A stretch of 64,000 bases of DNA from an uncultured Oscillospiraceae bacterium (GCA_900543215.1 UQQR01000005.1:18769-82768), one strand, 5' to 3'. Shown: positions 14,034 through 31,221, numbered from the stretch's first letter. The notes: generated from the letters alone by a model not told the origin. Numbers and translations are program-made.

Positions 14034-14402
14034 GCAAAAACCCACACCGCAAAAGCGTAATGCTCTTAAAGGAGAATTACGCAAACCGAGTAGGAACAAA
14101 CAAAACACCGGCCATCATTACAATGGTCGGTGTCAGTCTGTCGATAAACCCCAAGTTTTATTTTTGCGGCGTTTACGCCGCATTTACGTTTTTTCGCTGA
14201 CACGTGCGGCGAAAAAACACCTTGTAAGCGAAAAACCGCTTATTCAGCGGTTTTTCAAGGGCACTGGGGTGGTATTGGCGGGGATAGAGTACAGTCCGAA
14301 AATCTCTGATTTTCGAGCGAACGGCATTCCCGTCCAAGAGCGTGTCGACTTTTTCGACACGCTCACACCGGCCATCATTACAATGGTCGGTGTTTTTGTG
14401 CA
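14034..14402. repeat. hairpin-dense intergenic block with a duplicated 29-bp palindromic unit
   Basis: ACACCGGCCATCATTACAATGGTCGGTGT occurs at 14105-14133 and 14365-14393. Additional perfect hairpins are GCGGCGTTTACGCCGC (14166), GAAAAACCGCTTATTCAGCGGTTTTTC (14231) and GAGCGTGTCGACTTTTTCGACACGCTC (14338). ORF 13957-14445 across it is low-complexity and judged spurious. Confidence 0.5.
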
Positions 14403-15257
14403 TTATTTGTTTCGCTCACCTCTAAATTCATCAATTAAGGTTTGAAATTCAGTAGCGCTCATCTTTACATACATTTTTTGAACATACTCATAAAGGAATC
14501 TCGAAACTTTTTTATAAGACAATTTACAGCAGCGCATCACCTCGAACCGATGTTTCCGTCTTAACTTTTTGTCATCAGTTTCTTTAAATCCCATGCGCAG
14601 AAAAAGGATTTCATATTTCGAATATACGGCAAAAAAATACGCAACTGGTAAATATAAGGTTGAAAGCACTATGGGTAAAGCCAAACCAACTATGATATCA
14701 ATAAATTGAATACTACCAATTGAGTTGATAGCCGATATTATTGTAAGAGCAAGTATTCCCAAACCCAAAATGCCAACAAGACCATCAATGATTTTTTTTA
14801 CTTTTTCGGTCTTTTTAATTAGTGTTGATTGGAGAATCATAAAAATTACTAAAAGGGGCTGTAGTATCAGTTCGAGTATGATATGGAATGTAAACGTACC
14901 CGTAAAAAATTCCACTAATGCTACAAATTTTAAATTATCAATTATTATATTCCTAAAATAATGCTTTTCCATTTCTCTGCTCGCCGCATTAAAGCAAACA
15001 GGAACTCCAGCAAATAGAGTCCAAAAGATAATATCCTTAATATATACCCAATCCCAAAATGGCAAAAATGTACATACCCAAGTAAAAACTGCAGCAAATG
15101 ATATTACAATCAAAAATGGAACGATAAGTTTTATTTTACACGCAGCCTTAATAACTGGTACCACGATAGATTTTGCTTTTTTGTGTATGAGCAGATAGAT
15201 TAGTAAACCTATTGCATAAACAAAAATTGCAACTTCGCGCGTTGAAAAAAACCACAT
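14403..15257 (-). CDS. multi-pass membrane protein of unknown function (about 7 TM, basic C-terminal tail), AT-rich
   Basis: 284 aa with hydrophobic segments throughout, about 30% GC versus about 50% in flanking host genes. Co-oriented with the upstream gene, separated by 10 bp. Confidence 0.6.
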   Translation of the reverse strand: MWFFSTREVAIFVYAIGLLIYLLIHKKAKSIVVPVIKAACKIKLIVPFLIVISFAAVFTWVCTFLPFWDWVYIKDIIFWTLFAGVPVCFNAASREMEKHYFRNIIIDNLKFVALVEFFTGTFTFHIILELILQPLLVIFMILQSTLIKKTEKVKKIIDGLVGILGLGILALTIISAINSIGSIQFIDIIVGLALPIVLSTLYLPVAYFFAVYSKYEILFLRMGFKETDDKKLRRKHRFEVMRCCKLSYKKVSRFLYEYVQKMYVKMSATEFQTLIDEFRGERNK

Positions 15258-15266
15258 ATTTATCTA

Positions 15267-16160
15267 TCACCCTCTTTTTTTAAGTGCGGATAATACTGCA
15301 TTGTCCGAAACGGCATCTAAATATAGTGACATTGGAAATAAAAGATGTGCCTTATTTGAATATGACGGAAAATTCATTGCAAAATTCACACTACAAGGGA
15401 CACCTACAGAAAGGCTATAATCTTTTGCTGGCAACCCCTTTATGATATCTTGTTCAATTTCTTCAAGTTCTTTTTCATATCTTTGAATTTTTAAATTCTT
15501 AAAATTACTAATGTCATTCTCCAATTTTGATATCCAGTTTTTAAATTCTCTTATAGATGGATCTTGCGACCATTCTTTTGCAATTTCTATCATTTGTTTA
15601 AATGAAGATGATTGTCTATTTATTGAAGAAAAAATAATATTTGGATTGAATGTTAAGTTTGCTTTGCGGATAGAATCATTTAAATCGGCATAATAGTTGA
15701 AAACATCTTTATCAAGTGCATGTATAGCATCATGTCGGTTGTAGTACTGTTTGAATTCGAAATATAAGTCATTTTCTTTTACAAATTTAGCTCTTTCATC
15801 AAAAGGCATATAACTTATATTGCAATGATTGGCAATATTCATATATTCCAATGCTCCCTTTGCAACCAAAGAGGTGTATTTGCTGCAGAATTCTTTATAA
15901 TAATTGAATTCTGCTTTTTGTAAAGAGTCACCAGTATTTTGAAGCGATATAGATTTTAGCAAATCCTTTATATCAATATCATCAATCATAGAATGATTTT
16001 GCCAATATGTCGAAAAGCCATTCTCGAAATAATATATATCATCCCATAACACTAAAATTTCGATAAATGCAATTACTTCAGGTGAAAAGTCTGTGCTTTC
16101 ATCGTTAATACATTGAGTAATTCTCTCTATAGTCCAATTATCAAGCAATATTCCAGTCAT
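15267..16160 (-). CDS. hypothetical cytoplasmic protein (no recognisable domain), AT-rich
   Basis: 297 aa ORF with RBS GAGGTGA upstream of the ATG at 16160. First gene of a two-gene low-GC cassette. Confidence 0.6.
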   Translation of the reverse strand: MTGILLDNWTIERITQCINDESTDFSPEVIAFIEILVLWDDIYYFENGFSTYWQNHSMIDDIDIKDLLKSISLQNTGDSLQKAEFNYYKEFCSKYTSLVAKGALEYMNIANHCNISYMPFDERAKFVKENDLYFEFKQYYNRHDAIHALDKDVFNYYADLNDSIRKANLTFNPNIIFSSINRQSSSFKQMIEIAKEWSQDPSIREFKNWISKLENDISNFKNLKIQRYEKELEEIEQDIIKGLPAKDYSLSVGVPCSVNFAMNFPSYSNKAHLLFPMSLYLDAVSDNAVLSALKKRG

Positions 16161-16590
16161 TTAATCACCTCTTCATATTTTCCTTTATTATATCATAAAA
16201 CTGCTAATGAGCAAAGTAAATTGTCGATTAATGTACGGTTTAATAGCAAAAATCAAACCACCTTAAACAGGCTGCTTTAATAAGAATTTTGTATGTCCCA
16301 TGAAAAAAGCCGATTGACGAGTGCAAAAGTAAGCAGCACAGGATCAAGAAAATCCTGTGCTGTTTGCTTTATCCGGCGTGTCCGAACAACTCAAGGCCAA
16401 TCACCAAATGGAGTGGGTTGCTCGAATGAATAACATCCACAGTAGATCACGGAAATTGTAAATAATGATTTGATACTAATATAAGCGAACAGAGCGGGCG
16501 CTCGGCCTCGCTCTGTTCGAGACTTCTTTAGATATTGTGTAAACCTCCAAGAAGGTATAAAATAGAAATAACAAATCGGAGGTTATAATT

Positions 16591-18113
16591 ATGCCAAGGT
16601 ACAAAGACAGCCCGGAGGTACGGGCAGCAAAACAGGAACGGAGAGAGAAATTGCGGGAGTTGCTCGCGCTGATGGAGGTAGAGGATGTCCGAGACCTGAA
16701 ATCCGTATTTAAGGAAATGGTCGGCGAGGTTCTCGAAAACGGACTTGAAGCGGAGCTTGACGATAAGCTAGGTTAGACAATACAATCAGGATACAATACT
16801 TTTTTGAAGAAACGGCGCCGTTATCGGCATTGTTGCCCTCCGCTCACAATACGTCAGTATTCTTCGGTCAGGCGCCGCGCCGATAAACAGCACCGTTTTT
16901 TTACAAAATCCCTGACCCATAGCGAGAAAATTTTTTTGTTTATGAAGTCGAGGAATGCAGGCATACCGGCGTATTTCAAATGACGAGGCAATATAAACAG
17001 ATAAATTTTCCGCTATGGGAAGCATTGTACCCTGATTGTATTGTCTACACCAAGTACGATTACCGAAATAAAGACACCGACAACAGCCGAAACGGTCATA
17101 GCGTAAAGACTGTTAAAACAAGTGCGGGCGAAGTGGAAATAGCCGTTCCGCGAGACAGGAAATCCGAATTTGAACCGCCGATCATCAGGAAAAACGAAAC
17201 ATCAATAAGCTGGGATATTGAAGAAAAGATCATTTCAATGTACGCCAAAGGTATGACCACCAACGATATTTCGGCACATATTGAGGATATTTACGGAATA
17301 GAGGTATCGGACAGTCTTGTAAGCCGAATAACGGATAAAATACTTCCGGTAGTGAAGGAATGGCAGCAGAGACCGCTTGAAGGCATCTATGCGGTAGTTT
17401 TTATGGACGCAATTCATTACAATGTACGCTGTGAGGGCAGAATTGTAAAGAAAGCCGTATACATAGCAATCGGCATAAATATGGACGGGAAGAAAGATGT
17501 TCTCGGTATGTATGTCGGGGAGAATGAAAGCGCAAGGTATTGGCTTTCAATACTTAACGGGCTGAAAAACAGAGGTGTTGAGGATATTTTAATTGCCTGT
17601 GTCGACGGCCTTACGGGTTTCCCCGAGGCAATATCCGCCGTATATCCGAAAACCGAAGTACAGCAATGTATTATACATTAAATCCGTAACAGCACAAAGT
17701 ATGTTTCATACAAGGATATTAAAGCTCTAATGGCGGATTTAAAGGAGGTTTACGCCGCCGTAGACGAGGAAACGGCGCTTTACGAATTAGAGCAGTTTGC
17801 GGCCAAATGGGACTCAAAATATCCTAAAATTTCGGCTTCATGGAAGGCTCATTGGTTTGAACTTTCAACCTATTTTAAGTATCCGCAATCGGTAAGAACG
17901 CTGATCTACACCACCAATTCCATTGAAAATTTTAACAGGCAGCTGCGGAAGGTTTCAAAAAACAGGTCGGTATTCCCGAACGATGACAGCCTGCTTAAAA
18001 TGCTCTACTTGGCTCAGGTAGACATTACAAGAAAATGGACCGGCAGACGCAGGGACCAAAGTGAGATTCATTCTCAGCTTGAAATATTCTTTGCCGACAG
18101 ACTGCCGGAGTAG
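16591..18113 (+). pseudogene. IS256-family transposase, disrupted by a 270-bp insertion and a CAA>TAA nonsense codon
   Basis: Three ORFs (16591-16776, 16980-17681, 17730-18113) concatenate to a full IS256 Tpase: ...LEAELDDKLG|YTKYDYRNKDTDNSRNGH... and ...QQCIIH*IRNSTKYVSYKD.... The in-frame TAA at 17682-17684 sits where family members have Gln (CIVHQIRNS). Confidence 0.8.
16776..17045. mobile_element. MITE-like 270-bp element with perfect 15-17-bp terminal inverted repeats and a TA target duplication, inserted in the transposase gene
   Basis: TIRs TAGACAATACAATCAGG (16774-16790) and CCTGATTGTATTGTCTA (17031-17047). Removing 16776-17045 and keeping one TA restores the reading frame ...GAT AAG CTA GGT TAC ACC AAG (DKLGYTK). 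Confidence 0.55.
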
Positions 18114-18308
18114 CAGAAATTCACAGCCATGTAAAGGGTAAAATGAACGGCTGCCACGACAGCCGCCCTTGACATGCCTTGCTCTTTCTGCTATTATGCA
18201 AATATGGCGTGCAAGCCGATTTTCGCCTTTCACGCCATCTATCACTTTGCTTTTTTATACCGTAATTTGGACTTTACACATAATTTGAAGAAGAACTAGG
18301 AGGAACCT

Positions 18309-20069
18309 GTGAAATATCTTAAAAATTCTTGTTGGCTTTTAGCCTTACTATGGAAACAAAATAAACCTATTTATTTTTGCTTTATTTCAGAAATACTATT
18401 AAATGTATTGCTGAATACAATAGGAATTGCAATCATTAATTATTTAATACAATATCTTTCCGACAGTGAATATCAATCGGCATTTATAGCGGTGCTGATT
18501 TTATGCTTAAGCACTCTTGTTCTAAATACATTAGTATCATTTCTTCAATACAAAAAACAGGGCTATTTAAACTCGTTTAATGTGTTTATAAAATGTATGC
18601 TGACAGACAGCACACTATCCACAAATTTCGATAACTTTGAAAAATGCGATTTCAGAGAACAGTATCAATTTGCAACAAAATGCGTCACAAGCGGTAATAT
18701 TCAAAATATAATTAATGCAGTGTGCAGCTTTGTTACATATATTCTATCGTTTATTACGCTTTCTTCAATCATTTCATATGTTGTGTGGTGGTTGTGGATT
18801 ATTATTCTTTCAAGCACTATTATTAATATAATTTGTGAATTTCATCGTGCAAACATTAATTTTGAAAGCGAGAAATCTCAAAACAGCGTTGAAATTAAAA
18901 TGCTGTATTCGAGAGATCGACTTACTTGGAAATTATTTGCCAAAGAAGTAAGACTGTTTGATATGTTCTCGTATGTTTCTAATCAAGTAAATAAGTATAT
19001 TAATTTATTGTCAAAATTGCAGGACAAGCGAGCTAATAAAATCTTTAAAGCTTTATGGTGGACATATTTGTTTAACGGTATTTTAATGTTGGCGGTATAT
19101 CTTTATGTTTCGTATAAATGCTATACTGGGGTATTTGAATTATCGCAGTTTTCAACTCTTATTTTATCAATTTTATCTATAAATCAAATGGCTTCCGGTA
19201 TTTCTGGCAGTATTCTTTCGATAAAGGAAAACGGTCTTTACATAAGCACATTTATTGATTTTATCAATAACCATAAGCAAAGTGACGAAACAAGCAGAAT
19301 TGATAAGTGCAGGTTTAATACTATCAGTTTCGAAGATGTTAGCTTTAAATATGACGGTGAAAATAATTTTGCATTAAAAAATATATCTTTGACTCTTTCG
19401 GCGGGTAAAAAGTACGGAATTGTCGGCAAAAACGGCTCAGGTAAGACCACTTTCACCAATTTATTGATGGGACTTTATTCGCCGACCGAGGGTGTTGTAA
19501 AAGTTGACGGAAAAAACATCAGCGAAATAAATCCTAATGAGTATATGAAGTATTTTTCGCCTATTTTTCAAAATTATAATATGTATGCCTATGATGTGAA
19601 AGAAAATATATCTATGAATGCTTGCTATGACATTTCAAGGGTGTGCAATTTGTTAAACAAGGTTAATTTTGCTGATAATGACTGCACTCAGTTTGCTGAT
19701 AAGTTTATAACAAAAGAGTATTCGCCGGACGGAATAGAATTTTCCGGCGGTCAGGAACAAAAAATCGCCATTGCCCGTGCATTATATAAAGATGCACCTA
19801 TCTTTGTTTTGGACGAACCATCTTCTGCTCTTTCTCCTAAAAGTGAGTTGGAGCTTTATGAATTGGTTAATAAGCAGCTAAAGGATAAAACAACATTTTT
19901 CGTTTCACACAGAATGGCAAGCTGTATATTATGCGATGAAATTTTAGTATTCGATAACGGCGAAATTGTGGAAAAAGGCAGTCACAGCGAGCTTATGTCA
20001 AATAACGGATTGTACCACAAGATGTTCACATCGCAAAGGAAGCTGTTTTCAGAGGTGAGAGAATCATGA
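18309..20069 (+). CDS. ABC exporter half-transporter (TMD-NBD fusion), subunit 1
   Basis: 586 aa; 6-TM N-terminal domain, Walker A GKNGSGKTT, signature FSGGQEQKIAIARAL, Walker B IFVLDEPSSAL. GTG start 5 nt after an AGGAGG that overlaps the IS256 right end. About 30% GC. Confidence 0.85.
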   Translation: MKYLKNSCWLLALLWKQNKPIYFCFISEILLNVLLNTIGIAIINYLIQYLSDSEYQSAFIAVLILCLSTLVLNTLVSFLQYKKQGYLNSFNVFIKCMLTDSTLSTNFDNFEKCDFREQYQFATKCVTSGNIQNIINAVCSFVTYILSFITLSSIISYVVWWLWIIILSSTIINIICEFHRANINFESEKSQNSVEIKMLYSRDRLTWKLFAKEVRLFDMFSYVSNQVNKYINLLSKLQDKRANKIFKALWWTYLFNGILMLAVYLYVSYKCYTGVFELSQFSTLILSILSINQMASGISGSILSIKENGLYISTFIDFINNHKQSDETSRIDKCRFNTISFEDVSFKYDGENNFALKNISLTLSAGKKYGIVGKNGSGKTTFTNLLMGLYSPTEGVVKVDGKNISEINPNEYMKYFSPIFQNYNMYAYDVKENISMNACYDISRVCNLLNKVNFADNDCTQFADKFITKEYSPDGIEFSGGQEQKIAIARALYKDAPIFVLDEPSSALSPKSELELYELVNKQLKDKTTFFVSHRMASCILCDEILVFDNGEIVEKGSHSELMSNNGLYHKMFTSQRKLFSEVRES

Positions 20070-21862
20070 AAAAACCTACTTTGTTTAAAAATACTTTTAA
20101 GCTTTTTAAATTGTCCTGTAAGCTTTCGCCAAAAAATGTTTTGTTTACGATACTTTCAACAGTAATCACAACCGCCAAAGATATTTTGGGAGTTTTGGCG
20201 CCCGCTTTTCTGATAGATGTTTTGACCAAAAGCAACAGTTTTTCACTTCCGGCAATGATAATAATCTTTTTTTGTGTGATCATTTCCGTCGCTAATATGA
20301 CTACCAAGTATTTTAGTTTGAAGCTGACTTCGCTCGGATACGCAATGAACAACAGAGGTGCTTTGAAAATCGGTCAAAAAGGTATGAGGCTTGATTATAA
20401 GTGCTGGGATGTTCCCGATTATATGGAGAACAACTTTAGAGCGGTGCAAGGCTCTTGGATCTTTATGGGCATTACAGACGCTTTTTTTGAAAAGCTTCTT
20501 TCGGGCTTAATTTCGTTTGTAACTATCAGCTATATCATAATGCAGGTAGATATATTTGTACTTCTGATTATTCTTTTATTGGTTGTAGTAAGCATTTTTC
20601 TTGACAAAAAATGCGCCAAAAGAATACATAAAATTGATCAGCATGAGGCAGTTGCCACAAAGAAAAAGCATTATGATGAAAGTGTATTGTTCGATATAAA
20701 ATACGGAAAAGAAATTCGTACATATAATGCAAAGGATTTTTTCAAGCAGAAGTTTCAAAAATCCTCAGATGAAGTATTGAATTTTGAAAATAAGAAAAAT
20801 AAGAATTCAATGATATTTTCAATACTTAATTATTTGGTTATCTTTTTGCAGTCTGTAACAGTATATTTGACCGCTGTTTTTAGATACGCTTCGGGCAAAA
20901 TGGCAATAAGCTATTTCTTAGTATATTATGGTGCTGTAATTAAGCTTAAAGATGCACTTTGTGCAATATTTGAATTTTATGCGGATATATCCGAGATTGA
21001 AGAATATTACATTGATATAAATAATTATCTTAATACACAAGAGTCAATGAATACTGGGAAATTAACATTGTTTGAAAATAACAGCTCTTTTTGTATTGAA
21101 TTTAAAAATGTGTATTTTAAATATCCGACTACCGAGAAATATATATTGAAAAATATCAGTTTTAAGTTGACTGGCAATGATAAGCTTTGTATCGTGGGAG
21201 AAAACGGAAGCGGAAAAACAACGCTTATTAAGCTTCTACTAAGGCTATATGATCCGACAAGCGGCGAAATCTTATTAAACGGAAATAATATCAAAGAATA
21301 TGATTATCAGCACTATCTGTCTGTTGTTGCACCTGTTTTTCAGGATTTTCAGCTTCACGCTTTCACTCTGCGTGAAAATATCTCGTTTTTGGATAAACAA
21401 AACGATGAAAAAATATTTGTTCTACTGGAAATGCTGGAAATGAAGGAAAAGGTTGAAAGCTTAGAAGATGGCCTTGACAGTATGGTTACAAAACAATTGG
21501 ACGAAAACGGCACAGATTTTTCAGGCGGCGAAAAACAGAAAATCGCAATGATTAGAGCTGGCTTTAAAGACAGCAGATTAGTTGTTTTAGATGAGCCCAC
21601 TTCAAATATTGATCCGTTAGCTGAAATTAAGTTTTATGAAAAAATCAATGAGGTTTTTAATAATAAGCCGATTGTATTTGTTTCCCACAGAATGACAAGT
21701 GCTAAAATTTCAGATTACATCATCGTAATGGATAACGGAGAAATAATTGAAAGTGGACGCTTTCCAGATTTGTTAAATCAAAACGGTACATTTTCAACAA
21801 TGTATAAAGCACAAGCGAACTTATACAAAGACAAGGGGGATTTGAATGCAAAAACAGTTTAA
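20066..21862 (+). CDS. ABC exporter half-transporter (TMD-NBD fusion), subunit 2
   Basis: 598 aa; GENGSGKTT, FSGGEKQKIAMIRAG, LVVLDEPTSNID. ATGA overlap with subunit 1, so a heterodimeric exporter. No N-terminal C39 peptidase domain. Confidence 0.85.
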   Translation: MKKPTLFKNTFKLFKLSCKLSPKNVLFTILSTVITTAKDILGVLAPAFLIDVLTKSNSFSLPAMIIIFFCVIISVANMTTKYFSLKLTSLGYAMNNRGALKIGQKGMRLDYKCWDVPDYMENNFRAVQGSWIFMGITDAFFEKLLSGLISFVTISYIIMQVDIFVLLIILLLVVVSIFLDKKCAKRIHKIDQHEAVATKKKHYDESVLFDIKYGKEIRTYNAKDFFKQKFQKSSDEVLNFENKKNKNSMIFSILNYLVIFLQSVTVYLTAVFRYASGKMAISYFLVYYGAVIKLKDALCAIFEFYADISEIEEYYIDINNYLNTQESMNTGKLTLFENNSSFCIEFKNVYFKYPTTEKYILKNISFKLTGNDKLCIVGENGSGKTTLIKLLLRLYDPTSGEILLNGNNIKEYDYQHYLSVVAPVFQDFQLHAFTLRENISFLDKQNDEKIFVLLEMLEMKEKVESLEDGLDSMVTKQLDENGTDFSGGEKQKIAMIRAGFKDSRLVVLDEPTSNIDPLAEIKFYEKINEVFNNKPIVFVSHRMTSAKISDYIIVMDNGEIIESGRFPDLLNQNGTFSTMYKAQANLYKDKGDLNAKTV

Positions 21863-22547
21863 GCCCGTTATTGCAATTATTGATTCCGGAATGTCATCTT
21901 TAAATAATTGCTTGAAAAAAGATCTATTTATAAATTATTTAGGAAATGACTTTTGCTTTTGCAATGGACAAACGGATGAAGAGGGTCACGGAACTACTAT
22001 TAACAAAATAATAAGGTGGCATAATGAAGATGCAACTTTGATTAATATAAAATTGTTGCAACAAGACGAAGTCATTATGATTAACGACTTGATTGCTGCA
22101 CTGCAGTATGTTTATGATAATATTGATTGTAATATTATAAATATCAGTATGTCATATAATGTAATAGAGGATTTTTCGCTTAAAAGAAATTTAGAAGATA
22201 TATGTAATCGTTTGGCAAATAAAAACATGATAATTGTTGCTGCGTTTGATAATCTTGGCTCAATTTCATATCCAGCAGCATTCAAATCTGTTATTGGAGT
22301 TACGAGCGGCGAGTATTGCAAAAGAAACAATGATGTTGAATATGTTTATAATGACATTGTCAATATTTGTGGAAAAGGAAACAACCAAATTATCTCAATA
22401 AACAAAGATCGAGTTAATTTAGTTTCAGGCAATAGTTTAGCTTGTGCACATGTTTCTGGGATAATTTCAACAATTCTAAATGAAAACGATAATACCGATT
22501 GTATACTAAAAAAGCTAGAACGAATGGCTATTTTCAAACATGATTGA
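21846..22547 (+). CDS. small intracellular S8 (subtilisin-like) serine peptidase lacking signal peptide and pro-domain; LanP-like leader peptidase candidate
   Basis: 233 aa. Catalytic triad in subtilase order and context: D in IAIIDSG, H in EEGHGTT, S in GNSLACAHVSG. It overlaps the preceding ABC gene by 17 nt. Confidence 0.75.
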   Translation: MQKQFKPVIAIIDSGMSSLNNCLKKDLFINYLGNDFCFCNGQTDEEGHGTTINKIIRWHNEDATLINIKLLQQDEVIMINDLIAALQYVYDNIDCNIINISMSYNVIEDFSLKRNLEDICNRLANKNMIIVAAFDNLGSISYPAAFKSVIGVTSGEYCKRNNDVEYVYNDIVNICGKGNNQIISINKDRVNLVSGNSLACAHVSGIISTILNENDNTDCILKKLERMAIFKHD

Positions 22548-22617
22548 GTCTTCTTTAGATATTGTGTAAACCTCCGAGATGGTATAAAATAGAAATAACA
22601 AATCGGAGGTTAAAATT

Positions 22618-24140
22618 ATGCCAAGGTACAAAGACAGCCCGGAGGTACGGGCAGCAAAACAGGAACGGAGAGAGAAATTGCGGGAGTTGCTCGCGCTGAT
22701 GGAGGTAGAGGATGTCCGAGACCTGAAATCCGTATTTAAGGAAATGGTCGGCGAGGTTCTCGAAAACGGACTTGAAGCGGAGCTTGACGATAAGCTAGGT
22801 TAGACAATACAATCAGGATACAATACTTTTTTGAAGAAACGGCGCCGTTATCGGCATTGTTGCCCTCCGCTCACAATACGTCAGTATTCTTCGGTCAGGC
22901 GCCGCGCCGATAAACAGCACCGTTTTTTTACAAAATCCCTGACCCATAGCGAGAAAATTTTTTTGTTTATGAAGTCGAGGAATGCAGGCATACCGGCGTA
23001 TTTCAAATGACGAGGCAATATAAACAGATAAATTTTCCGCTATGGGAAGCATTGTACCCTGATTGTATTGTCTACACCAAGTACGATTACCGAAATAAAG
23101 ACACCGACAACAGCCGAAACGGTCATAGCGTAAAGACTGTTAAAACAAGTGCGGGCGAAGTGGAAATAGCCGTTCCGCGAGACAGGAAATCCGAATTTGA
23201 ACCGCCGATCATCAGGAAAAACGAAACATCAATAAGCTGGGATATTGAAGAAAAGATCATTTCAATGTACGCCAAAGGTATGACCACCAACGATATTTCG
23301 GCACATATTGAGGATATTTACGGAATAGAGGTATCGGACAGTCTTGTAAGCCGAATAACGGATAAAATACTTCCGGTAGTGAAGGAATGGCAGCAGAGAC
23401 CGCTTGAAGGCATCTATGCGGTAGTTTTTATGGACGCAATTCATTACAATGTACGCTGTGAGGGCAGAATTGTAAAGAAAGCCGTATACATAGCAATCGG
23501 CATAAATATGGACGGGAAGAAAGATGTTCTCGGTATGTATGTCGGGGAGAATGAAAGCGCAAGGTATTGGCTTTCAATACTTAACGGGCTGAAAAACAGA
23601 GGTGTTGAGGATATTTTAATTGCCTGTGTCGACGGCCTTACGGGTTTCCCCGAGGCAATATCCGCCGTATATCCGAAAACCGAAGTACAGCAATGTATTA
23701 TACATTAAATCCGTAACAGCACAAAGTATGTTTCATACAAGGATATTAAAGCTCTAATGGCGGATTTAAAGGAGGTTTACGCCGCCGTAGACGAGGAAAC
23801 GGCGCTTTACGAATTAGAGCAGTTTGCGGCCAAATGGGACTCAAAATATCCTAAAATTTCGGCTTCATGGAAGGCTCATTGGTTTGAACTTTCAACCTAT
23901 TTTAAGTATCCGCAATCGGTAAGAACGCTGATCTACACCACCAATTCCATTGAAAATTTTAACAGGCAGCTGCGGAAGGTTTCAAAAAACAGGTCGGTAT
24001 TCCCGAACGATGACAGCCTGCTTAAAATGCTCTACTTGGCTCAGGTAGACATTACAAGAAAATGGACCGGCAGACGCAGGGACCAAAGTGAGATTCATTC
24101 TCAGCTTGAAATATTCTTTGCCGACAGACTGCCGGAGTAG
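22618..24140 (+). pseudogene. IS256-family transposase, same insertion and same nonsense codon as copy A
   Basis: ORFs 22618-22803, 23007-23708 and 23757-24140 are identical at protein level to those of copy A. Confidence 0.8.
22803..23072. mobile_element. second copy of the 270-bp MITE-like element, at the same position within the IS256 transposase gene
   Basis: TIR TAGACAATACAATCAGG at 22801-22817 and its reverse complement at 23058-23074. Confidence 0.55.
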
Positions 24141-24333
24141 CAGAAATTCACAGCCATGTAAAGGGTAAAATGAACGGCTGCCACGACAGCCGCCCTTGAC
24201 ATGCCTTGCTCTTTCTGCTATTATGCAAATATGGCGTGCAAGCCGATTTTCGCCTTTCACGCCATCTATCACTTTGCTTTTTTATACCGTAATTTGGACT
24301 TTACACATAATTTGAAGAAGAACCATAAAAATA

Positions 24334-24396
24334 CCCACTGGATGCGGCGGTTATTCACGTAACCTTGCCTCAACATCCAGTGGGAATTTTTTATTT
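24334..24396 (+). terminator. stem-loop plus T-tract immediately outside the IS256-B right end
   Basis: CCCACTGGATG-27 nt loop-CATCCAGTGGG followed by AATTTTTTATTTT. Confidence 0.45.
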
Positions 24397-24471
24397 TGGC
24401 TTTGTAGCCGTTTGTTTTATCTAAAACGGCCTACAGGTCAATAAAACTATTTCTGTTCGATTGTACGGCAA

Positions 24472-25089
24472 TCAAATCTCATCATATTCTTGAGAAAGTT
24501 TTCTATCCTTTAAAGTTACTTCAATTTTCGAAAGGATCTTAGCAGGATCTAAATCCTTATGATCGCTTGATAATTGCAGCTTTTCAGGTTTAATAAAATA
24601 CTGCGTTTTACCATCAGTACCTTTATGACCTATATAAATTACCACAATAGTATCCCCATCTTTATCGGTTTTAACTTCTGTTTTAATCCAATAATCAGAC
24701 TCTGGCTTTTCTTTGGATTTAATTTCAGGCACATACCAGTCGTCCAAGCGAATCAATTTAGCATCTTTAAACTCAGGAATATTAAGCATGCGCATACATT
24801 TGCTCTGTAAGCTCTTGAAACTATCTATCGATATTTCTTCATTGCATTTAGGACACCAAAGCGTAGGTGCAATTTTATCGGAAACAAATTCAAGTTCTAT
24901 TTCAGGGTGTTTTGTACAATGAAAGTGGATGCCATGTTGGTTGCAAAAATAATACTTGTGCCAATTTTCTTCGCGTTCAGTAAAGTTTGTGCAATCGCCG
25001 TGGAATAATTCACCACCATCATATAAAGTGCATTTTCTGAAAGAAATATTATCATCCAATCGATATATAACTTTATTTTCACTACTCAT
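24472..25089 (-). CDS. Cys/His-rich (zinc-finger-like) protein of unknown function
   Basis: 205 aa with clusters C20/H30/C33, H44/C49/H52/H55/H57/C58/H61 and a CPKC pair. No recognisable catalytic motif. About 38% GC. Confidence 0.6.
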   Translation of the reverse strand: MSSENKVIYRLDDNISFRKCTLYDGGELFHGDCTNFTEREENWHKYYFCNQHGIHFHCTKHPEIELEFVSDKIAPTLWCPKCNEEISIDSFKSLQSKCMRMLNIPEFKDAKLIRLDDWYVPEIKSKEKPESDYWIKTEVKTDKDGDTIVVIYIGHKGTDGKTQYFIKPEKLQLSSDHKDLDPAKILSKIEVTLKDRKLSQEYDEI

Positions 25090-25107
25090 AAATTACTCTC
25101 CTTGTTT

Positions 25108-26088
25108 TTAATCATTAACCTCAATAATTTTCAATGCTTCTTCCGACGTTAATTCACCGCGCAGATATTTATCTCTTGCCTCAGTGGCAGCATCGCACCA
25201 AACATAAAAATCATCATAGGTGATGCCTTTGGGGGACATATATGTTTTACCTTCATTGCGCTCATAACGGCGGTACATTTTTCGCTTTTCTCTGTCGTAT
25301 GCTTCTACAACTTTATCGGTCAGAACCATCTTTTTGTGTTTAAGACTCGGTGCCAGATCCTTACAAGTCTTATCATCTTTAAGAATGCGGTCACAATACT
25401 TGGTCGCCTTGTTGGTTTTGGGAACAAAATATCTACCGCAACATTCACATCTCACAATTTTGGGTTTTGTAGATAAGAACTGCATTAACAGGAAGATATA
25501 ATAATCAGTCAAATTGCGGAAGAAATACCGTGCAGTCAGTTCTCCGTGGAAAGTCAGTTCTTGCTGTAGCATGATTTGTGAAAGAAAATACTGTGTACCT
25601 TCTTCGTCAAGGGTGTTGCCAGTATAAATGTTGTAAAACGTGTCGTTTACAAATAAATTGAAATCAACAATTGAACAAAGCACCATAGGAATTATGGTTT
25701 TTGTAGTCTCGATACATTCGATAGAGCCGTCAAAGACGGGAACAGAATCCATAATCATAGTCTCGGAGAGCAAAGAAGCAATCGGTGAATTCTCTTCCAA
25801 CTCCTTAATCAAACTCTCAGTAGTCGAAGTGAGCCGTTCAAAATTTTTCAAATCTTCTTTGTTGGGTTTATGCTTTCCCTCGGTTTTAATGTTATTTGCA
25901 AGTTCTTGGATTAAATCCACAATCCTTGAATACGGCCAAAAATTCAATTCGGAGAACTCTATAATCTCATCCTTAATCGTGGTGACAGGTAGTTCCTGCT
26001 CACCCGATTCGGTGATGAGATTTCTTTTTATTTGACCATCTTTTTCTAAGGTTACATACAGTCCAATTTGCTGGGGTATTATCTGCAT
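25108..26088 (-). CDS. hypothetical protein with a C-terminal CxCCGRYF...KYCDR...C zinc-ribbon-like segment
   Basis: 326 aa. Acidic N-terminal half, a hydrophobic core, and a basic C-terminal tail with a C4-type cluster (RCECCGRYFVPKTNKATKYCDRILKDDKTC). Co-directional with the 205-aa gene, 18 bp apart. Confidence 0.6.
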   Translation of the reverse strand: MQIIPQQIGLYVTLEKDGQIKRNLITESGEQELPVTTIKDEIIEFSELNFWPYSRIVDLIQELANNIKTEGKHKPNKEDLKNFERLTSTTESLIKELEENSPIASLLSETMIMDSVPVFDGSIECIETTKTIIPMVLCSIVDFNLFVNDTFYNIYTGNTLDEEGTQYFLSQIMLQQELTFHGELTARYFFRNLTDYYIFLLMQFLSTKPKIVRCECCGRYFVPKTNKATKYCDRILKDDKTCKDLAPSLKHKKMVLTDKVVEAYDREKRKMYRRYERNEGKTYMSPKGITYDDFYVWCDAATEARDKYLRGELTSEEALKIIEVND

Positions 26089-26655
26089 AAATTCACCGCC
26101 TTTTGTGTAAAAGTGAACTTTGTATATTTTTCTTCAAAACACCTTCTCACCCCGAAGGTGTTGTTTTCATATTAGAATTATATCACAGACAGGCAAAAAA
26201 GAAAAGTCTGACCTTACAATTGAATGACCTGCCGATAAGATATGCGGAGGCGGCCTTTGGCGATGACAGCAGTTTGCGGGAACTGTGCTGGGAGAGAAAG
26301 ATGCACTGTGGTGTGTTCCGAAAGGACTCGGCGAGCGAAGGATCGTCTTCAACACTACACGGTCAAGAAAAGAGCGTAGGAACAACGTCGGGGAGAACAG
26401 GCTTAAATCTGCGGTGAAGCGAGGAAGGAATATGAACTTTCTCTTATAGGCAACAGTCGCCATCCGCAGTTGTGGGTGCAGCACTCCTTCGAGTTGGTGT
26501 GCTCACAGCGGGAACAAAAAAGTGTTCCTGCACAATATGAATATTGCTCCCACCTTTTAGGTGAGCGCAATAAAAATAAACTCATGAAAGGTGGGATGTA
26601 TATGATTGTTTCAATTGAAACCCCAATGCAAAAATCTACAGAAAGGAAAGAAAAA

Positions 26656-27624
26656 ATGACAACCGAAAAAACACTATCCCTTGTTCGAATGTCGGATGTG
26701 CAGCTTCAAGAAGTCAGATGGCTATGGAAACCGTATATCCCATTCGGAAAACTGACCATCATCCAAGGTGACCCCGGCGAAGGTAAAACGACCTTTGCTC
26801 TACGGCTCGCCGCCGCTTGTTCTTCGGGCGTGGCTTTGCCCGGCATGGAAATTGCAGAACCCTTCAATGTGATTTATCAAACCGCCGAAGACGGACTCGG
26901 CGACACCATCAAGCCAAGGCTTATTGAAGCAGGTGCCGATGAAAGCAGAGTGCTGAATATCTGCGAGGACACCGATCCTCTTTCTCTGTCGGATGAAAGA
27001 ATCGAACAGGCAATCAGGCAGACCGATGCCAAGCTGATGATCCTCGACCCGATTCAAGGTTATATCGGTGAGCGCATTGATATTAATCGTGCCAACGAAA
27101 TCCGCACCATTCTTAAAAAGGTTGCCGCCGTTGCCGAGCATACAGGATGCGCCATTATTATGGTCGGTCACCTTAATAAAGCTCAAGGCTCAAGCAGTGC
27201 CTACCGAGGACTTGGTTCAATAGACTTCCGTGCAGCCGCAAGAAGTGTTCTGTTAGTGGGTCGGCTTCGCAAAGAACCGAATGTCCGAGTTATTGTTCAC
27301 GATAAATCTTCGCTGACACCCGAAGGTAAATCCATCGCCTTCAACCTTGGTAATGAGGATGGTTTTTATTGGCTCGACGGTTACAGTGAAATATCCGCCG
27401 AAGAACTGCTCTGTGGTTTCTCTGCCGAAACCAAAACAGCGGTAGCAGAAGAACTGATCCGCAGTATGTTGGCTGACGGCAAAGAAGTTACGGCAGAGGA
27501 AATATTCAGAACCGCCGCCAACAAAAACATTTCCCAGCGCACCGTTAATGAAGCCAAGAAAAACATTGACGGCATCAAAAGCCGAAAGGTTGGCAAAGGC
27601 TGGGCGTGGTCGATACCCGAATAA
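26656..27624 (+). CDS. AAA_25/RecA-fold ATPase typical of integrative mobilizable elements (primase/helicase-loader-like)
   Basis: Start placed at MTTEKT. WLWKPYIPFGKLTIIQGDPGEGKT (Walker A), LMILDPIQGY (Walker B-like), and a C-terminal wHTH-like tail. Confidence 0.7.
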   Translation: MTTEKTLSLVRMSDVQLQEVRWLWKPYIPFGKLTIIQGDPGEGKTTFALRLAAACSSGVALPGMEIAEPFNVIYQTAEDGLGDTIKPRLIEAGADESRVLNICEDTDPLSLSDERIEQAIRQTDAKLMILDPIQGYIGERIDINRANEIRTILKKVAAVAEHTGCAIIMVGHLNKAQGSSSAYRGLGSIDFRAAARSVLLVGRLRKEPNVRVIVHDKSSLTPEGKSIAFNLGNEDGFYWLDGYSEISAEELLCGFSAETKTAVAEELIRSMLADGKEVTAEEIFRTAANKNISQRTVNEAKKNIDGIKSRKVGKGWAWSIPE

Positions 27625-27859
27625 AGATTGCAACATTGCAGAGTGTCCTATCTGCATTGTTAAAAGTAGATGACAATGGGAGTCCTTTGCATTGTTGCAT
27701 TCTTCTTTTTCTGCCGTATGGATTACAGCAGTAACTATCGGTAGGGCGTTTATTGCGAGTTTCGCCTTTGTGTTACGTCCACCGATTTCGGCGGCCGCAC
27801 CAAAGGCGGTCGGGCTAAGCCCATACCCCCTATATTTTTAAGAAAGGACGGTTACAACG

Positions 27860-28168
27860 ATGACTAAAACCGAAATATTAAAGTTCAGGGTAACACCTGA
27901 AGAAAAAGAAATCATCACCCACAAGGCACTATCCTCATACAGACTCGTCAGTCAGTATCTGCGTGACTGTGCCTTGGAAAAACAAATCACCGTGATAAAC
28001 GGTGCGGATAATGTTGCCGATGAGCTCAGGCGCATCGGTAATAATGTAAATCAAATCGCCCGTGCGGTAAACGCTGGCTTCGTTACCGAAACAAACCTCA
28101 CGGAAACAAGAGAGGAGTTGAAAGCGATATGGCAATCGTTAAATTCGTTACTTCGGACTGCCCGATGA
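27860..28168 (+). CDS. mobC: mobilization protein MobC (relaxosome accessory)
   Basis: 102 aa with the MobC family signature RIGNNVNQIARAVN. It overlaps the relaxase start by 40 nt. Confidence 0.75.
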   Translation: MTKTEILKFRVTPEEKEIITHKALSSYRLVSQYLRDCALEKQITVINGADNVADELRRIGNNVNQIARAVNAGFVTETNLTETREELKAIWQSLNSLLRTAR

Positions 28169-29109
28169 ATAATATCTTTCCCTATGTTATGAGGAAAGAG
28201 GCAACCGAGCAAAGACTCATAAGCGGCATTGAGTGTTCACCCAATACGGCGTTGGAAGAATTCCGTTATGTAAAACAGAAATACGGTAAAGAGGACGGCA
28301 GAACCTACTATCATATCGTGCAGTCCTTCGCTCCCGATGATGAACTGACATCCGAAACCGCACATGAAATCGGGTTAAAGTTTGCAGAACACTTTCCCGG
28401 TTATCAGATCTTGGTGGCGACCCATTACAACACCGGTCATATTCACAATCATCTTATTATGAACTCTGTCAACTACCAAAACGGTAAAAAGTTTCACCAA
28501 ACCCGCGATGAACTTTTGCAGGTGAAGGCATACTCCAACAAGCTCTGTCAGGAGTATGGGTTGAGCATTACCGAAGAAAAGTGCAGCTACGGCAGATGGC
28601 CGGAATGGAAAAAGCGACTCCGCAGTTTTGCTCTGTATGCAATAAGTAATTCCGATACAAAAGAAGAATTTATTGCGTATATGCGCGAGCACGGATACAA
28701 CGTCAAGTGGGAAGATAAATACAAATATATCACCTTCACCACACCCGACAATCACGTGTGCCGCGACAAGAGTTTGTTTGATGAGCGTCTGCTCAAAGAC
28801 AACCTCGAAGTATACTTTGCGCTTGGCGGTGCGAGCAGCGAACTATATGATGACTATAACGATTATAAAACTCCTGCGCATACACCCGAAGCAAGCATGA
28901 CAGTTACAACGGGACTCATAAGTTTACTCGGCGATCTGCTTTCAACAGCACCGCCCGAGGACGATTATGAGCCGCATCCGGCAAAAGAACTAAGCACCGC
29001 CGCGAAGCTTAGACTTGAAAAAATCCTCGGCAAGAAAATTTCACCTATGGCATACGCTTGCTATTCTACTCAGGAAGATGAAGGACAAGCGATGGGGTTT
29101 TATATGTAA
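28129..29109 (+). CDS. relaxase/mobilization nuclease (PF03432-type)
   Basis: MAIVKFV... N-terminus. The catalytic-Tyr region is YYHIVQSF, and the 3-His metal motif is HYNTGHIHNHLIMNSV. Confidence 0.8.
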   Translation: MAIVKFVTSDCPMNNIFPYVMRKEATEQRLISGIECSPNTALEEFRYVKQKYGKEDGRTYYHIVQSFAPDDELTSETAHEIGLKFAEHFPGYQILVATHYNTGHIHNHLIMNSVNYQNGKKFHQTRDELLQVKAYSNKLCQEYGLSITEEKCSYGRWPEWKKRLRSFALYAISNSDTKEEFIAYMREHGYNVKWEDKYKYITFTTPDNHVCRDKSLFDERLLKDNLEVYFALGGASSELYDDYNDYKTPAHTPEASMTVTTGLISLLGDLLSTAPPEDDYEPHPAKELSTAAKLRLEKILGKKISPMAYACYSTQEDEGQAMGFYM

Positions 29110-29120
29110 GCCAACTTGAG

Positions 29121-29333
29121 TTGGAGAAAGGATTTATTATGAGCAATATTCTTAACAACAAAATCGACACAGATGTTTTTGAAGAAAACCGCCGTCATTA
29201 TTATTTTGCACAGACGATAGAGATAGACGGCAGACGATATCCTGTGATTTCAGTAATTCCCTTGGCACAAGAAGATCACTTCGAAACCGCAGAAGACAAA
29301 CTGAAATATTTAATAATCGGCACAAAAAATTAA
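29121..29333 (+). CDS. small hypothetical protein in mobilization module
   Basis: A 70-aa ORF immediately after the relaxase. No motif found. Confidence 0.35.
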   Translation: MEKGFIMSNILNNKIDTDVFEENRRHYYFAQTIEIDGRRYPVISVIPLAQEDHFETAEDKLKYLIIGTKN

Positions 29334-29442
29334 CAGCATTGTCGCTGGACTTTCAAACCGAATAGTGATATGTTGTTGATGTATCCTATTCGGTTTGATT
29401 TAACAGAGCTGAACACAGCTCGGAAAGGATATGAGAAATATA

Positions 29443-31125: not shown

Positions 31126-31132
31126 AAAGCAG

Positions 31133-31162
31133 TAACCGGAAGGCATTAAGCCTTCCGGTTAC
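31133..31162 (+). terminator. GC-rich perfect hairpin just after the recombinase stop (terminator or attachment-site-associated)
   Basis: GTAACCGGAAGGC-atta-GCCTTCCGGTTAC, with no T-tract. Confidence 0.4.
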
Positions 31163-31221
31163 ATAGCCCCTCGAATTTTCCGTTAAGAACATAACGGTAA
31201 ACGGTGTGGGTTTTTTGTGCA

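Follow-up and report, generated by a model that had tools for sequence, protein, structure and literature searches.

A probable decayed IS256-family composite transposon carrying a piece of a radical-SAM peptide cluster inside an integrative mobilisable element of a gut bacterium

Introduction

Tn4001 carries a resistance gene between inverted, functional copies of IS256. Like the related IS256-flanked compound transposons of staphylococci and enterococci, it resembles the locus described here, where IS256-family elements also surround captured cargo and where, as in Tn4001, the IS ends can probably drive adjoining genes. In contrast to Tn4001, the two copies at our locus are direct and both dead, and what they carry is part of a RiPP cluster. 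Our IS belongs to a subfamily of gut Clostridia and has only the Pfam family in common with IS256 itself.

Direct repeats around cargo, as found here, are also the arrangement of IS26 pseudo-compound transposons or translocatable units and of unconventional circularizable structures (PMC5024762; PMC7986276). In these, a circle of one repeat plus the cargo re-integrates beside another copy, and no new target duplication arises (PMC5024762; PMC7986276). IS26, an IS6-family element, carries out these reactions with its own transposase, whereas the transposase genes of our unit are of the PF00872 type and inactive, so that the unit would depend on RecA or on a transposase acting in trans; our only hint of a circular form is one looped contig. 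PMC9330008 cites Prudhomme et al. 2002 (its reference 64) for circles and tandem dimers of IS256.

Two further precedents bear on the locus. Gene conversion of non-functional IS copies, a subject that enters through the reference list of PMC3205602 (Cordaux 2009, Mol Biol Evol 26:1679), lets dead copies stay or become identical without transposition. That case reportedly concerns many dispersed copies in an endosymbiont, whereas ours concerns two copies 4.2 kb apart in metagenome contigs. Radical-SAM/SPASM clusters for Cys-rich (ranthipeptide-like) peptides contain, by their NCBIfam names, a QhpE-like protease, a TIGR04066 protein and paired ABC exporters. From such a cluster our cargo retains the two exporter genes together with the protease domain, and the window has no gene for the maturase, carrier protein, precursor or regulators.

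Results

The carrier element

The window, as we call the whole stretch analysed, is one strand of 64,000 nt from an uncultured Oscillospiraceae bacterium (GCA_900543215.1 UQQR01000005.1:18769-82768), and coordinates count from its start. The comparison loci (L-numbers) are short-read metagenome contigs, in which wrong threading through repeats is possible; mixed flanks around MITE copies indicate that such mis-threading does occur. The carrier host is a Ruminococcus-like human gut bacterium. We found that the whole structure lies in an integrative mobilisable element (IME):

14050..31201 (left boundary approximate), IME of ~17 kb that carries the whole structure, from Pfam and relatives
14403..16160, minus strand, two low-GC IME genes of 284 and 297 aa, left without family assignment by profile searches
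24472..26088, minus strand, IME backbone genes for a 205-aa protein and a DUF6076 protein, from Pfam and IME relatives
26470..31125, plus strand, mobility module identified by Pfam: AAA_25 ATPase, NikA/MobC, relaxase and large serine recombinase (29509-31125)

The element has a site-specific recombinase, a relaxase and an accessory protein, and occurs at two chromosomal sites, as expected of an IME. In the window it sits between a host amino-acid ABC ATPase gene, which ends at 14033, and the host ispH-S1 gene (31265-33307). The backbone of the IS-free relatives L019-L024 is located at another chromosomal site, with homology stopping at window position 31201. In these relatives, window homology also ends at 16518 and restarts at 24325, and 8,190 bp of other genes lie between the equivalent positions. 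Thus, the IS-cargo unit occupies the accessory region of the IME, where it substitutes for 8.19 kb of other genes.

The genes of 14403..16160 are also present in the IS-free relatives, and are backbone rather than cargo. Low GC extends beyond the IS copies (31% at 14403-16160 and 36% at 24472-26088, against ~45-48% for the host). Rfam and tRNA scans of 14-27 kb gave no matches, and PADLOC gave no hits on the unassigned IME genes. The sole PADLOC match was a partial PDC-S60, located in the segment that the transposon replaced.

Two inactive IS256-family copies

Two copies of one IS bound the unit:

16519..18296, plus strand, upstream IS256-family copy of 1,778 bp (1,506 bp without the MITE and duplicated TA), from the repeat, PF00872 and the stop of IME homology
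22546..24324, plus strand, downstream IS256-family copy of 1,779 bp, from the repeat and the resumption of IME homology at 24325

The copies are directly repeated at an offset of 6027 bp (16519-18296 versus 22546-24323). A preliminary description of this DNA, made from the sequence alone, had reported two identical, direct, doubly lesioned IS256 copies, and our alignment confirms the pair: both lesions are present in each copy, and the only mismatches are at 16522, 16549, 16553 and 16586, all four inside the first 68 bp. The downstream copy alone has an extra terminal C at 24324. Relatives place this base within the IS, and it is missing from the upstream copy.

The assignment to the IS256 family is based on both ends and protein. 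The imperfect terminal inverted repeat CTTCTTyAaATwTTGTGTAAA has exactly 4 occurrences in the window, where chance alone predicts 0.03. With imperfect terminal repeats of ~26 bp and a length of 1,506-1,507 bp without the MITE, the element fits the family size (~1.3-1.5 kb). The transposase fragments match PF00872 (Transposase_mut type), and the reconstructed 416-aa transposase retrieves thousands of PF00872 proteins, one of which, at 77% identity, bears the NCBI name 'IS256 family transposase'. Relatives with an intact 416-aa protein are abundant: at 96% identity, they fall in protein clusters of 415 and 944 members.

Relatives of the IS have 8-bp target duplications (L038, L043, L040, L110 and L243), and among the MITE-bearing copies, which occur at many loci, one has a clean 8-bp duplication. 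None of the four IS junctions in the window pair up. The 8 bases flanking the outer ends are unlike, CTCTGTTC on the left and ATAAAAAT on the right. The 8.19-kb replacement, together with donor-derived inner ends, would account for these unpaired junctions.

The right end of each copy contains an outward promoter-like site:

18169..18197, plus strand, site in the right end of the upstream IS, TTGACA, 17 nt, TATTAT, with TG before TATTAT, from the consensus match
24196..24224, plus strand, the same sequence in the downstream copy

The site matches 11/12 consensus positions. Across 25 related IS copies, whose proteins are as little as 70% identical, the hexamers are kept and the spacer varies. 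From this pattern, the putative promoter of the upstream copy probably drives the exporter genes.

A nested MITE and a nonsense codon

The transposase gene is broken at the same two places in both copies:

16591..16776, plus strand, transposase codons 1-61, the frame closed by a TAG arising at the MITE end
16776..17045, plus strand, nested 270-bp MITE of the upstream copy, with 19-bp terminal inverted repeats GACAATACAATCAGGrTAC and a TA duplication at 16774-5 / 17046-7
22803..23072, plus strand, the identical MITE in the downstream copy
17679..17681, plus strand, TAA nonsense codon of the upstream copy, codon 273 of 416, CAG in relatives
23706..23708, plus strand, TAA nonsense codon of the downstream copy, codon 273, CAG in relatives

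The 270-bp insertion flanked by inverted repeats that had been noted in codon 62 is thus a MITE (16776-17045 and 22803-23072), and it interrupts the Tyr codon 62 of the 416-codon transposase. The second lesion had been described as CAA to TAA; the stop is there, but relatives read CAG instead of CAA. TAA is the commonest stop in the window (29/45 genes), so the TAA at codon 273 is a real stop, which rules out an alternative genetic code or readthrough. With the MITE in codon 62 and the TAA at codon 273, neither copy is an autonomous IS256-family element. Differing lesions would have spoken against the preliminary description, and the window copies are alike at both.

We take the 270-bp element to be comparable to the TA-duplicating MITEs of the IS630/Tc1-mariner type. 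It shares with them a short non-coding sequence, terminal inverted repeats, TA duplication, a high copy number and a strong hairpin fold (-59 kcal/mol as single-stranded DNA, z = -8.8). It differs from other such MITEs in being nested in a transposase gene, where host IS and MITE together form a multi-copy unit. The 19-bp terminal repeat has 4 matches in the window (0.01 expected) and is present in at least 119 metagenome stretches. We found 29 full copies of 80-96% identity in 80 loci; 28 are flanked by TA on both sides, and the most divergent (L161, 80%) has TA and TG. Precise empty sites were found in eight other IS copies. No autonomous partner with the same ends was found among the 80 loci, and loci with a single terminal repeat share only ~65 bp.

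The exact 61-aa product of the disrupted transposase is indexed in 299 blocks of the contig collection. In this widespread derivative, an ATG inside the MITE opens an N-terminally truncated transposase; exact look-up of the 233-aa fragment starting inside the MITE returned no record. The Tn5 inhibitor protein is a trans-acting inhibitor, and by analogy the truncated transposase could act in the same way.

The cargo and its native cluster

Between the copies lies a piece of a radical-SAM RiPP cluster:

18297..22545, plus strand, cargo of 4,249 bp with 32.3% GC, from matching IS-free loci
18309..20069, plus strand, ABC exporter subunit 1, 586 aa, complete, GTG start, from Pfam and NCBIfam
20066..21862, plus strand, ABC exporter subunit 2, 598 aa, complete, from Pfam and NCBIfam
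21846..22547, plus strand, truncated S8 protease gene, the first 233/603 codons with the QhpE-like protease domain only, from native-locus comparison

A search of metagenomes for the cargo with or without flanking IS256 had been suggested earlier, and we found loci of both kinds. The IS-free loci L231 and L233-L235 match the cargo at 99.93-99.95% identity over exactly 18297-22545, from IS end to IS end. In L028, a relative of 95% identity, homology likewise breaks off precisely at the IS end. The cargo is identical in seven IS-flanked contigs that come from different samples, and these 0 differences over 4,249 bp point to a single recent origin of the IS-flanked cargo. No relatives were found in GTDB representative genomes, where a scan with a 3-sequence S8 alignment gave 116 pattern matches, none of which encodes one.

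The native locus is an agr-type, quorum-sensing-linked radical-SAM/SPASM RiPP cluster on an ICE-like element. Its order begins with a response regulator, histidine kinase, AgrB, a 49-aa peptide and an HTH protein, and continues with the radical-SAM protein, an ACP-like protein, a Cys-rich precursor of 37-40 aa (MKKIFIKPKHNNYSKKLVLCSCPSNKDECKAAQGCYC), a terminator, two ABC genes and an S8-TIGR04066 fusion. The left breakpoint of the cargo falls beyond the precursor gene and terminator, with the IS end 1-2 nt 5' of the RBS of the first ABC gene. This RBS (AGGAGG, 18298-18303) is native to the cargo; it had been thought to overlap the right end of the IS, but it begins 2 nt beyond the IS end at 18296. 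The right breakpoint is in codon 233 of the 603-codon fusion gene, and the stop TGA of the fragment takes its T from the cargo and its GA from the downstream IS.

The S8 gene of the cargo consequently lacks the TIGR04066-type C-terminal domain and is not a complete short QhpE-like protease, since the native fusion has 603 codons and the window keeps 233. The maturase and precursor genes are just beyond the captured piece in the native locus and missing from the window; with the maturase, carrier protein, precursor and regulators absent, the cargo is unable to make the peptide. Judged from these comparisons, the cargo is a captured cluster fragment and not a complete operon. The ABC, ABC and S8-peptidase genes of the 4.25-kb operon first described are thus confirmed, but the operon is not intact, as its S8 gene is truncated by the downstream IS. 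Its limits and composition, given as 18297-22548 and ~30% GC in a host of ~50%, become 18297-22545 and 32.3% in a host of ~45-48%.

The presence of the same genes without IS in other contigs might suggest that two IS copies simply entered a resident operon and that nothing moved. But in the IS-free contigs, the radical-SAM, ACP and precursor genes precede these genes and the remainder of the S8 fusion follows them, whereas the neighbours in the window are IME backbone genes, which in IS-free IMEs are contiguous with a different 8.19-kb segment. The comparisons with IME relatives and native clusters refute insertion in place, and we give it almost no weight. An uninterrupted operon elsewhere without IS256, which would have counted against the preliminary description, literally exists in the native cluster, yet its flanks are unlike those in the window; it therefore supports capture and transport.

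Probable homogenisation of the copies

The preliminary description held that the copies were duplicated after the transposase was dead: one IS gained the MITE and the TAA, was then duplicated, and the pair is identical by descent. Both lesions are indeed the same in the two window copies. The TAA is also found in both MITE-less flanking copies (L009/L010 upstream, L026 downstream), so at least the TAA may predate the pair. However, in four other samples a cargo of 100% identity, joined at the same positions, is flanked by MITE-less copies, and there the upstream and downstream copies differ at 24/555 sites (~4%). Precise MITE excision is ruled out as the source of these copies, as the MITE is linked to a distinct flanking SNP haplotype. 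The MITE-less copies also carry the copy-specific end SNPs of the window, and therefore the ends already differed before the interiors became alike. Four differences confined to the first 68 bp have P = 2e-6 if they are independent point mutations in an otherwise identical pair.

We also found that the window copies are three-part mosaics of a copy-specific end, a widespread MITE-bearing segment and a locally derived right half with the TAA. Compared with L002_up and L003_dn, the window IS shows 0-1 differences over 845 bp including the MITE, and in L003_dn the tract ends between 17111 and 17163. Its right half differs from the MITE-less upstream copy of L010 at 1/457 and 2/237 sites. The MITE-bearing segment is widespread (299 index blocks), whereas the TAA-carrying right half is rare (3 blocks). 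The mosaic, the diverged MITE-less pairs at the same junctions and the end-clustered SNPs speak against duplication after transposase death, and identity of the whole pair by descent is improbable.

The two window copies appear instead to have been homogenised, either by gene conversion or by assembly collapse. In the case of gene conversion, a MITE-bearing segment from the widespread MITE-carrying subfamily would have been copied into one flanking IS, which would then have overwritten the other copy and spared that copy's first 68 bp.

In the case of collapse, an assembler would have passed two times through one collapsed repeat (flank, IS, cargo, IS, flank), and the true copies may differ in the MITE or right half. 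The window is probably from a metagenome-assembled genome, so the identity of its IS copies could be of this kind. The surviving differences are only within 68 bp of a unique junction, where a de Bruijn graph cannot collapse, and chimeric flanks surround MITE copies in other contigs. L001 (sample ERZ773178, a SPAdes contig), which represents the same locus, has two identical copies with a patchwork of upstream-type and downstream-type alleles. On the other hand, the dense SNPs of the MITE-less types (<127 bp apart) would hold the paths separate, as they do in four other assemblies, and where one copy has the 270 bp and the other does not, an assembler would normally break the contig and not smooth the difference over. 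L003_dn independently places a MITE-bearing copy downstream of the cargo, though over a link > k. We regard an assembly artefact as a real but minority possibility.

Origin and movement of the unit

Two copies of one IS flank cargo foreign to its surroundings, as in a composite transposon. We propose, with a probability of roughly 0.7, that the unit is a decayed IS256-family composite transposon with a captured piece of the cluster, carried in a serine-recombinase IME, and that its copies were secondarily homogenised. No target duplication is present around the whole unit between its outer flanks, so transposition of the unit is inferred, not demonstrated. All clear occurrences of the unit share one position in the IME. 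In L002, the only second context and perhaps a chimeric contig, the left flank consists instead of a redoxin gene and an IS3-family remnant. On the proposed reading, transposition would have brought the unit in, and an IS-mediated adjacent deletion would have followed.

Alternatively, a 6,027-bp circle of one IS and the cargo could have joined, by homologous recombination, a single IS already resident in the IME, with no composite transposition. The direct orientation of the copies and the lack of target duplication fit this route. IS copies are common in such IMEs (L251), and a resident IS with an adjacent deletion would account for the 8.19-kb replacement. A looped contig of the expected size also exists: in the MEGAHIT contig L003 (sample ERZ27262704), the opening 119 bases recur at the end (119 = k), giving a period of 6,027 bp. 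This loop hints at circles or tandem amplification, two forms that are indistinguishable from the contig, and a tandem array would explain it equally well. We saw no IME in which a single IS occupies this position. Moreover, the MITE-less flanking copies are ~4% apart and thus were not identical at formation, a divergence that is nevertheless compatible with recombination near one end. Integration of a circle is a less likely origin than composite transposition, though one with some claim.

Neither IS copy can make a transposase, and movement therefore needs a trans transposase, repeat recombination or the carrier element. Today the unit would have only three routes: a related transposase acting in trans, RecA recombination across the 1.78-kb repeats, and passive carriage with the IME. 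RecA recombination between the direct repeats would result in deletion, a 6,027-bp circle or tandem amplification. The preliminary description had proposed either a composite transposon mobilised in trans or a unit that amplifies or deletes by recombination; the composite-like unit with foreign cargo stands, and the intact operon does not.

Discussion

The unit is a clear but ordinary example of mobile elements shuffling genes, and none of the principles illustrated by the locus is new. It gives a base-pair view, in the human gut microbiome, of IS elements carving a functional sub-module from a biosynthetic cluster onto another mobile element. It also shows that identical lesions in two repeats need not signify identity by descent.

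In their new position, the exporters would be transcribed from the conserved outward IS promoter, uncoupled from their native regulators. They may have been kept for the export of, or immunity to, the peptide from strains with the full cluster. A more speculative possibility, which we hold only tentatively, is an 'immunity-only' cassette, in which an exporter pair without producer genes, under a constitutive IS promoter and amplifying or circularising via dead IS repeats, would give peptide resistance to non-producing Ruminococcus-like strains.

Taken together, dead IS copies are still able to shape genomes via their promoters and homology, and the orphan exporter pair becomes a candidate for conferring resistance or immunity to an as yet uncharacterised Cys-rich radical-SAM peptide.

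Two IS256-family copies with the same pair of lesions

We identified a direct repeat with an offset of 6,027 bp, whose arms (16519-18296 and 22546-24323) differ only at positions 16522, 16549, 16553 and 16586. The ends of the arms form an imperfect inverted repeat that occurs 4 times in the window (0.03 expected), and each arm contains an IS256-family transposase gene (PF00872) of 416 codons after removal of a 270-bp insert. Related IS copies show 8-bp target duplications and the terminus ...AACC. Since these relatives end in this way, the downstream copy extends to 24324; the upstream copy lacks the terminal C. The features of the region are as follows.

Features of the window
11322-11494: lysine riboswitch, upstream of the amino-acid ABC transporter operon bordering the integrative mobilisable element (IME)
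~14.05 kb to 31.2 kb: IME with AAA_25 ATPase, NikA/MobC, relaxase and large serine recombinase
16776-17045 and 22803-23072: MITE, the 270-bp insert, with 19-bp terminal inverted repeats and a duplicated TA at its flanks, splitting codon 62
18309-20069, plus strand: ABC1, ABC exporter subunit 1
21846-22547, plus strand: S8', truncated S8 protease
49142-49241, minus strand: pemK RNA motif

The preliminary description had reported two identical, doubly inactivated IS256 copies bracketing a low-GC operon of two ABC genes and an S8 peptidase gene, and this observation was confirmed with small corrections to its details. The same two lesions, the MITE in codon 62 and TAA at codon 273, were found in each arm. 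The nonsense codon, described as a CAA to TAA change, is real, but the codon in relatives is CAG. Because TAA ends 29 of the window's 45 genes, more than any other stop, this codon is a true nonsense codon. The cargo is indeed low in GC (32.3%), but the host flanks have 45-48% GC rather than about 50%. Strong terminator-like hairpins of the IME backbone directly adjoin both outer IS ends (16486-16519 and 24333-24385), which may reflect a target preference or just intergenic insertion.

The cargo is a fragment of a native cluster

The cargo (18297-22545) encodes two ABC exporters and an S8 peptidase, and IS256-free contigs encode an identical ABC1 protein. Four of these metagenome contigs (L231 and L233-L235) share 99.93-99.95% nucleotide identity with the window precisely across 18297-22545, with no other match in the vicinity. 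The native cluster is carried by an ICE-like element that also encodes MobL, a coupling protein and a Toprim protein. The cluster genes are ordered as follows.

Native cluster
Regulatory part: LytTR response regulator, histidine kinase, AgrB, 49-aa peptide, then HTH regulator
Maturation part: radical-SAM/SPASM maturase, acyl-carrier-like protein, then Cys-rich 37-40-aa precursor, hairpin and T-run
L231 9810-9932: candidate Cys-rich precursor, MKKIFIKPKHNNYSKKLVLCSCPSNKDECKAAQGCYC, then terminator-like hairpin
3' part: two ABC genes, then 603-aa fusion protein

The maturase is best matched by TIGR04463, at a score under that family's cut-off, and the precursor candidate of L231 had no NCBIfam match. 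The 603-aa fusion combines a QhpE-like S8 protease, which takes up its N-terminal 230 residues, with a match to the TIGR04066 'peptide maturation system' family over residues 249-598.

The upstream IS end meets native sequence 1-2 nt 5' of the AGGAGG of ABC1, right after the precursor's terminator. The downstream IS breaks the fusion gene after codon 233 and supplies, as its first two bases, the GA of a TGA stop; the protease domain of S8' keeps D13, H48, N136 and S197. The maturase, precursor and regulators are absent from the cargo. As both IS junctions lie inside the native cluster, the cargo is a fragment that consists of two complete exporter genes and the protease domain alone. An uninterrupted operon in genomes lacking IS256, which the preliminary description would have counted against itself, is literally what the IS-free contigs contain. 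However, the operon has different neighbours there than in the window, and its IS-free occurrence therefore supports capture and transport.

Two additional contigs, L236 and L237, carry further rearranged native clusters, in which cargo homology reaches only to window position 21920 and S8 is cut after ~130 codons. AgrB lies directly upstream of ABC1 in L237, and L236 also matches window 24317-24468 at 84%.

The IS-cargo-IS block replaces a segment of an IME

The IME is bordered by the lysine-riboswitch-controlled amino-acid ABC transporter operon on one side and ispH-S1 on the other. The low-GC genes bordering the IS copies on their outer sides, encoding 284-aa and 297-aa proteins on one side and a 205-aa and a DUF6076 protein on the other, belong to the IME backbone. 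This backbone is present with 99.6% identity in six contigs (L019-L024) at another chromosomal site. These contigs have neither IS nor cargo, and their match to the window ends exactly at 16518 and restarts at 24325. The gap is filled by other genes:

L019 10770-18959: 8,190-bp IME segment at the IS-cargo-IS position, with DUF4062, tyrosine recombinase, Band_7/zinc-ribbon and four unassigned proteins

Therefore, the IS-cargo-IS block replaces 8.19 kb of the IME. No target duplication was present at the outer ends of the block. The DUF4062 protein partially matches the PADLOC candidate PDC-S60, and the replaced segment may be a defence-type accessory module. All related contigs originate from human gut samples. 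A pilin of the window falls in a protein cluster (90% identity) with one member named as Ruminococcus sp.

The IS copies are mosaic

In seven IS-flanked contigs from different samples, the cargo has no differences from the window (0/4,249 bp) and the junctions are identical. Unlike the cargo, the flanking IS copies vary widely. In four samples both copies are MITE-less with precise TA empty sites, and the upstream copy adjoins the 297-aa gene. The MITE-less upstream and downstream copies differ at 24/555 compared sites; TAA is found in both, with an extra stop in each (W167* upstream, Trp-to-stop near the C-terminus downstream). Within the first 68 bp, these samples and the window have copy-specific bases in common (A, A, A, T upstream; T, G, T, A downstream).

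We found that the window IS is a three-part mosaic. The copy-specific 68 bp are followed by ~850 bp including the MITE, with 0-1 differences from the upstream copy of L002 and the downstream copy of L003, and then by the TAA-bearing right half, with 1/457 and 2/237 differences from the MITE-less upstream copy. Four random differences in 1,778 bp would all fall within the first 68 bp with p = 2e-6; the IS ends diverged before the interiors became alike. The proposal that the copies were duplicated after both lesions had arisen is not supported, in view of these older end differences, the mosaic, and the same cargo and junctions occurring with divergent MITE-less copies. In the simplest account, a MITE-bearing tract would have been copied into the upstream IS, which would then have overwritten the downstream IS except its outermost 68 bp. 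An apparent tract end lies between 17111 and 17163 in the downstream copy of L003. At this locus in another sample (L001), the two copies also match each other fully, but they have blocks of downstream-type alleles. Gene conversion reportedly homogenises dead IS copies, as described by Cordaux in 2009 (cited in PMC3205602).

The comparison sequences are short-read metagenome contigs throughout, and the window probably is as well. The identity of the two copies could thus come from a collapsed repeat traversed twice, since an assembler can output two identical copies in this way. Differences left only within 68 bp of a unique junction are what collapse would leave, and mixed flanks around MITE copies indicate that chimeric joins do occur in these data sets. 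However, the MITE-less haplotypes were reproduced in four independent assemblies, and an assembler would not merge them with a MITE-bearing path. We consider real homogenisation more likely than assembly collapse, and the conclusion of a captured fragment in an IME is independent of this choice. As a caution, shared lesions in repeats may stem from conversion or assembly, not descent.

In the contig collection, 299 blocks contain the exact 61-aa peptide of the MITE-bearing left part, which lies at no fewer than 6 distinct loci, whereas only three blocks contain the exact 127-aa product after the TAA. Therefore, the histories of the two lesions differ. The MITE is part of a widespread multi-copy non-autonomous IS-plus-MITE lineage, and the TAA is a local feature of this transposon. 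Independent premature stops in the IS population (n = 4; L009/L010, L004, L026/L027 and the window) comprise W167*, Q273*, a C-terminal Trp-to-stop and a TAG at the MITE end. Many haplotype differences among IS copies are G-to-A or C-to-T changes.

The nested MITE

MITE ends were found in at least 119 stretches of gut metagenomes. The 80 loci examined contained 29 full copies; of these, 28 are flanked by TA...TA, and the most divergent copy (L161) by TA and TG. The MITE folds into a strong hairpin (z = -8.8), and by its sequence features the nested 270-bp element fits the definition of a TA-duplicating MITE. A search for its autonomous partner among the 80 loci found none.

Within the MITE, an ATG opens a reading frame that continues into the transposase from codon 62 onward (window 16980-17681 and 23007-23708; L002 952-2085; L251 5390-6523), and in TAA-less copies this ORF encodes a 377-aa N-terminally truncated transposase. 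No good ribosome-binding site precedes this ATG. The ORF could be due to chance or could yield an inhibitor-like product.

The IS256-plus-MITE chimera is a multi-copy element in its own right (L243-L252), and in L243 it is flanked by a perfect 8-bp duplication, ATAAATTT. Several copies have one flank in common and the other different, suggesting recombination or chimeric assembly. An IS3-family transposase remnant (...LGYMSPVEYRHSLGLAV*) adjoins MITE-bearing copies in L002 (1-489) and in the left flanks of L246 and L252; in L002, it is adjacent to a low-GC TlpA-like redoxin gene.

Predicted expression and mobility

A candidate outward promoter (TTGACA, 17 nt, TATTAT, upstream TG; 11/12 matches) is located in the IS right end, ~110 nt before the ABC1 start. 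Across 25 related IS copies, which reach down to 70% protein identity, its hexamers are conserved and its spacer is variable. Such a right-end element, as found in IS256 and other families, drives the transposase across the circle junction and can also switch on adjacent genes (PMC9330008). Here, the IS promoter would express the exporters constitutively, freed from the native regulators. The selective value would likely be export of, or immunity to, the peptide of full-cluster carriers.

Neither IS can make transposase. The outer ends are intact, and gut metagenomes abound in intact 416-aa transposase relatives with 96% identity (in protein clusters with 415 and 944 members, and on contig L031). 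The 1.78-kb direct repeats would also be RecA substrates. L003, a MEGAHIT contig, begins and ends with the same 119 bases (119 = k), which closes it into a 6,027-bp cycle made up of one IS and the cargo. Such a cycle is expected only if flank junctions are absent or at far lower depth, indicating a circle or tandem array. A third route would be the IME itself, which occurs at two chromosomal sites.

Comparison with known systems

The whole locus is within known categories. Like Tn4001, it is an IS256-family compound transposon, but its IS copies are direct and dead. Its expected behaviour is nearer to IS26 translocatable units and 'unconventional circularizable structures' (PMC5024762), although it is no member of these, as its transposase is of another family and inactive. 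The preliminary observation is thus real and well supported, and its interpretation partly right. The main value of the locus is as an example, resolved to the base pair, of how IS elements in the gut microbiome capture sub-clusters.
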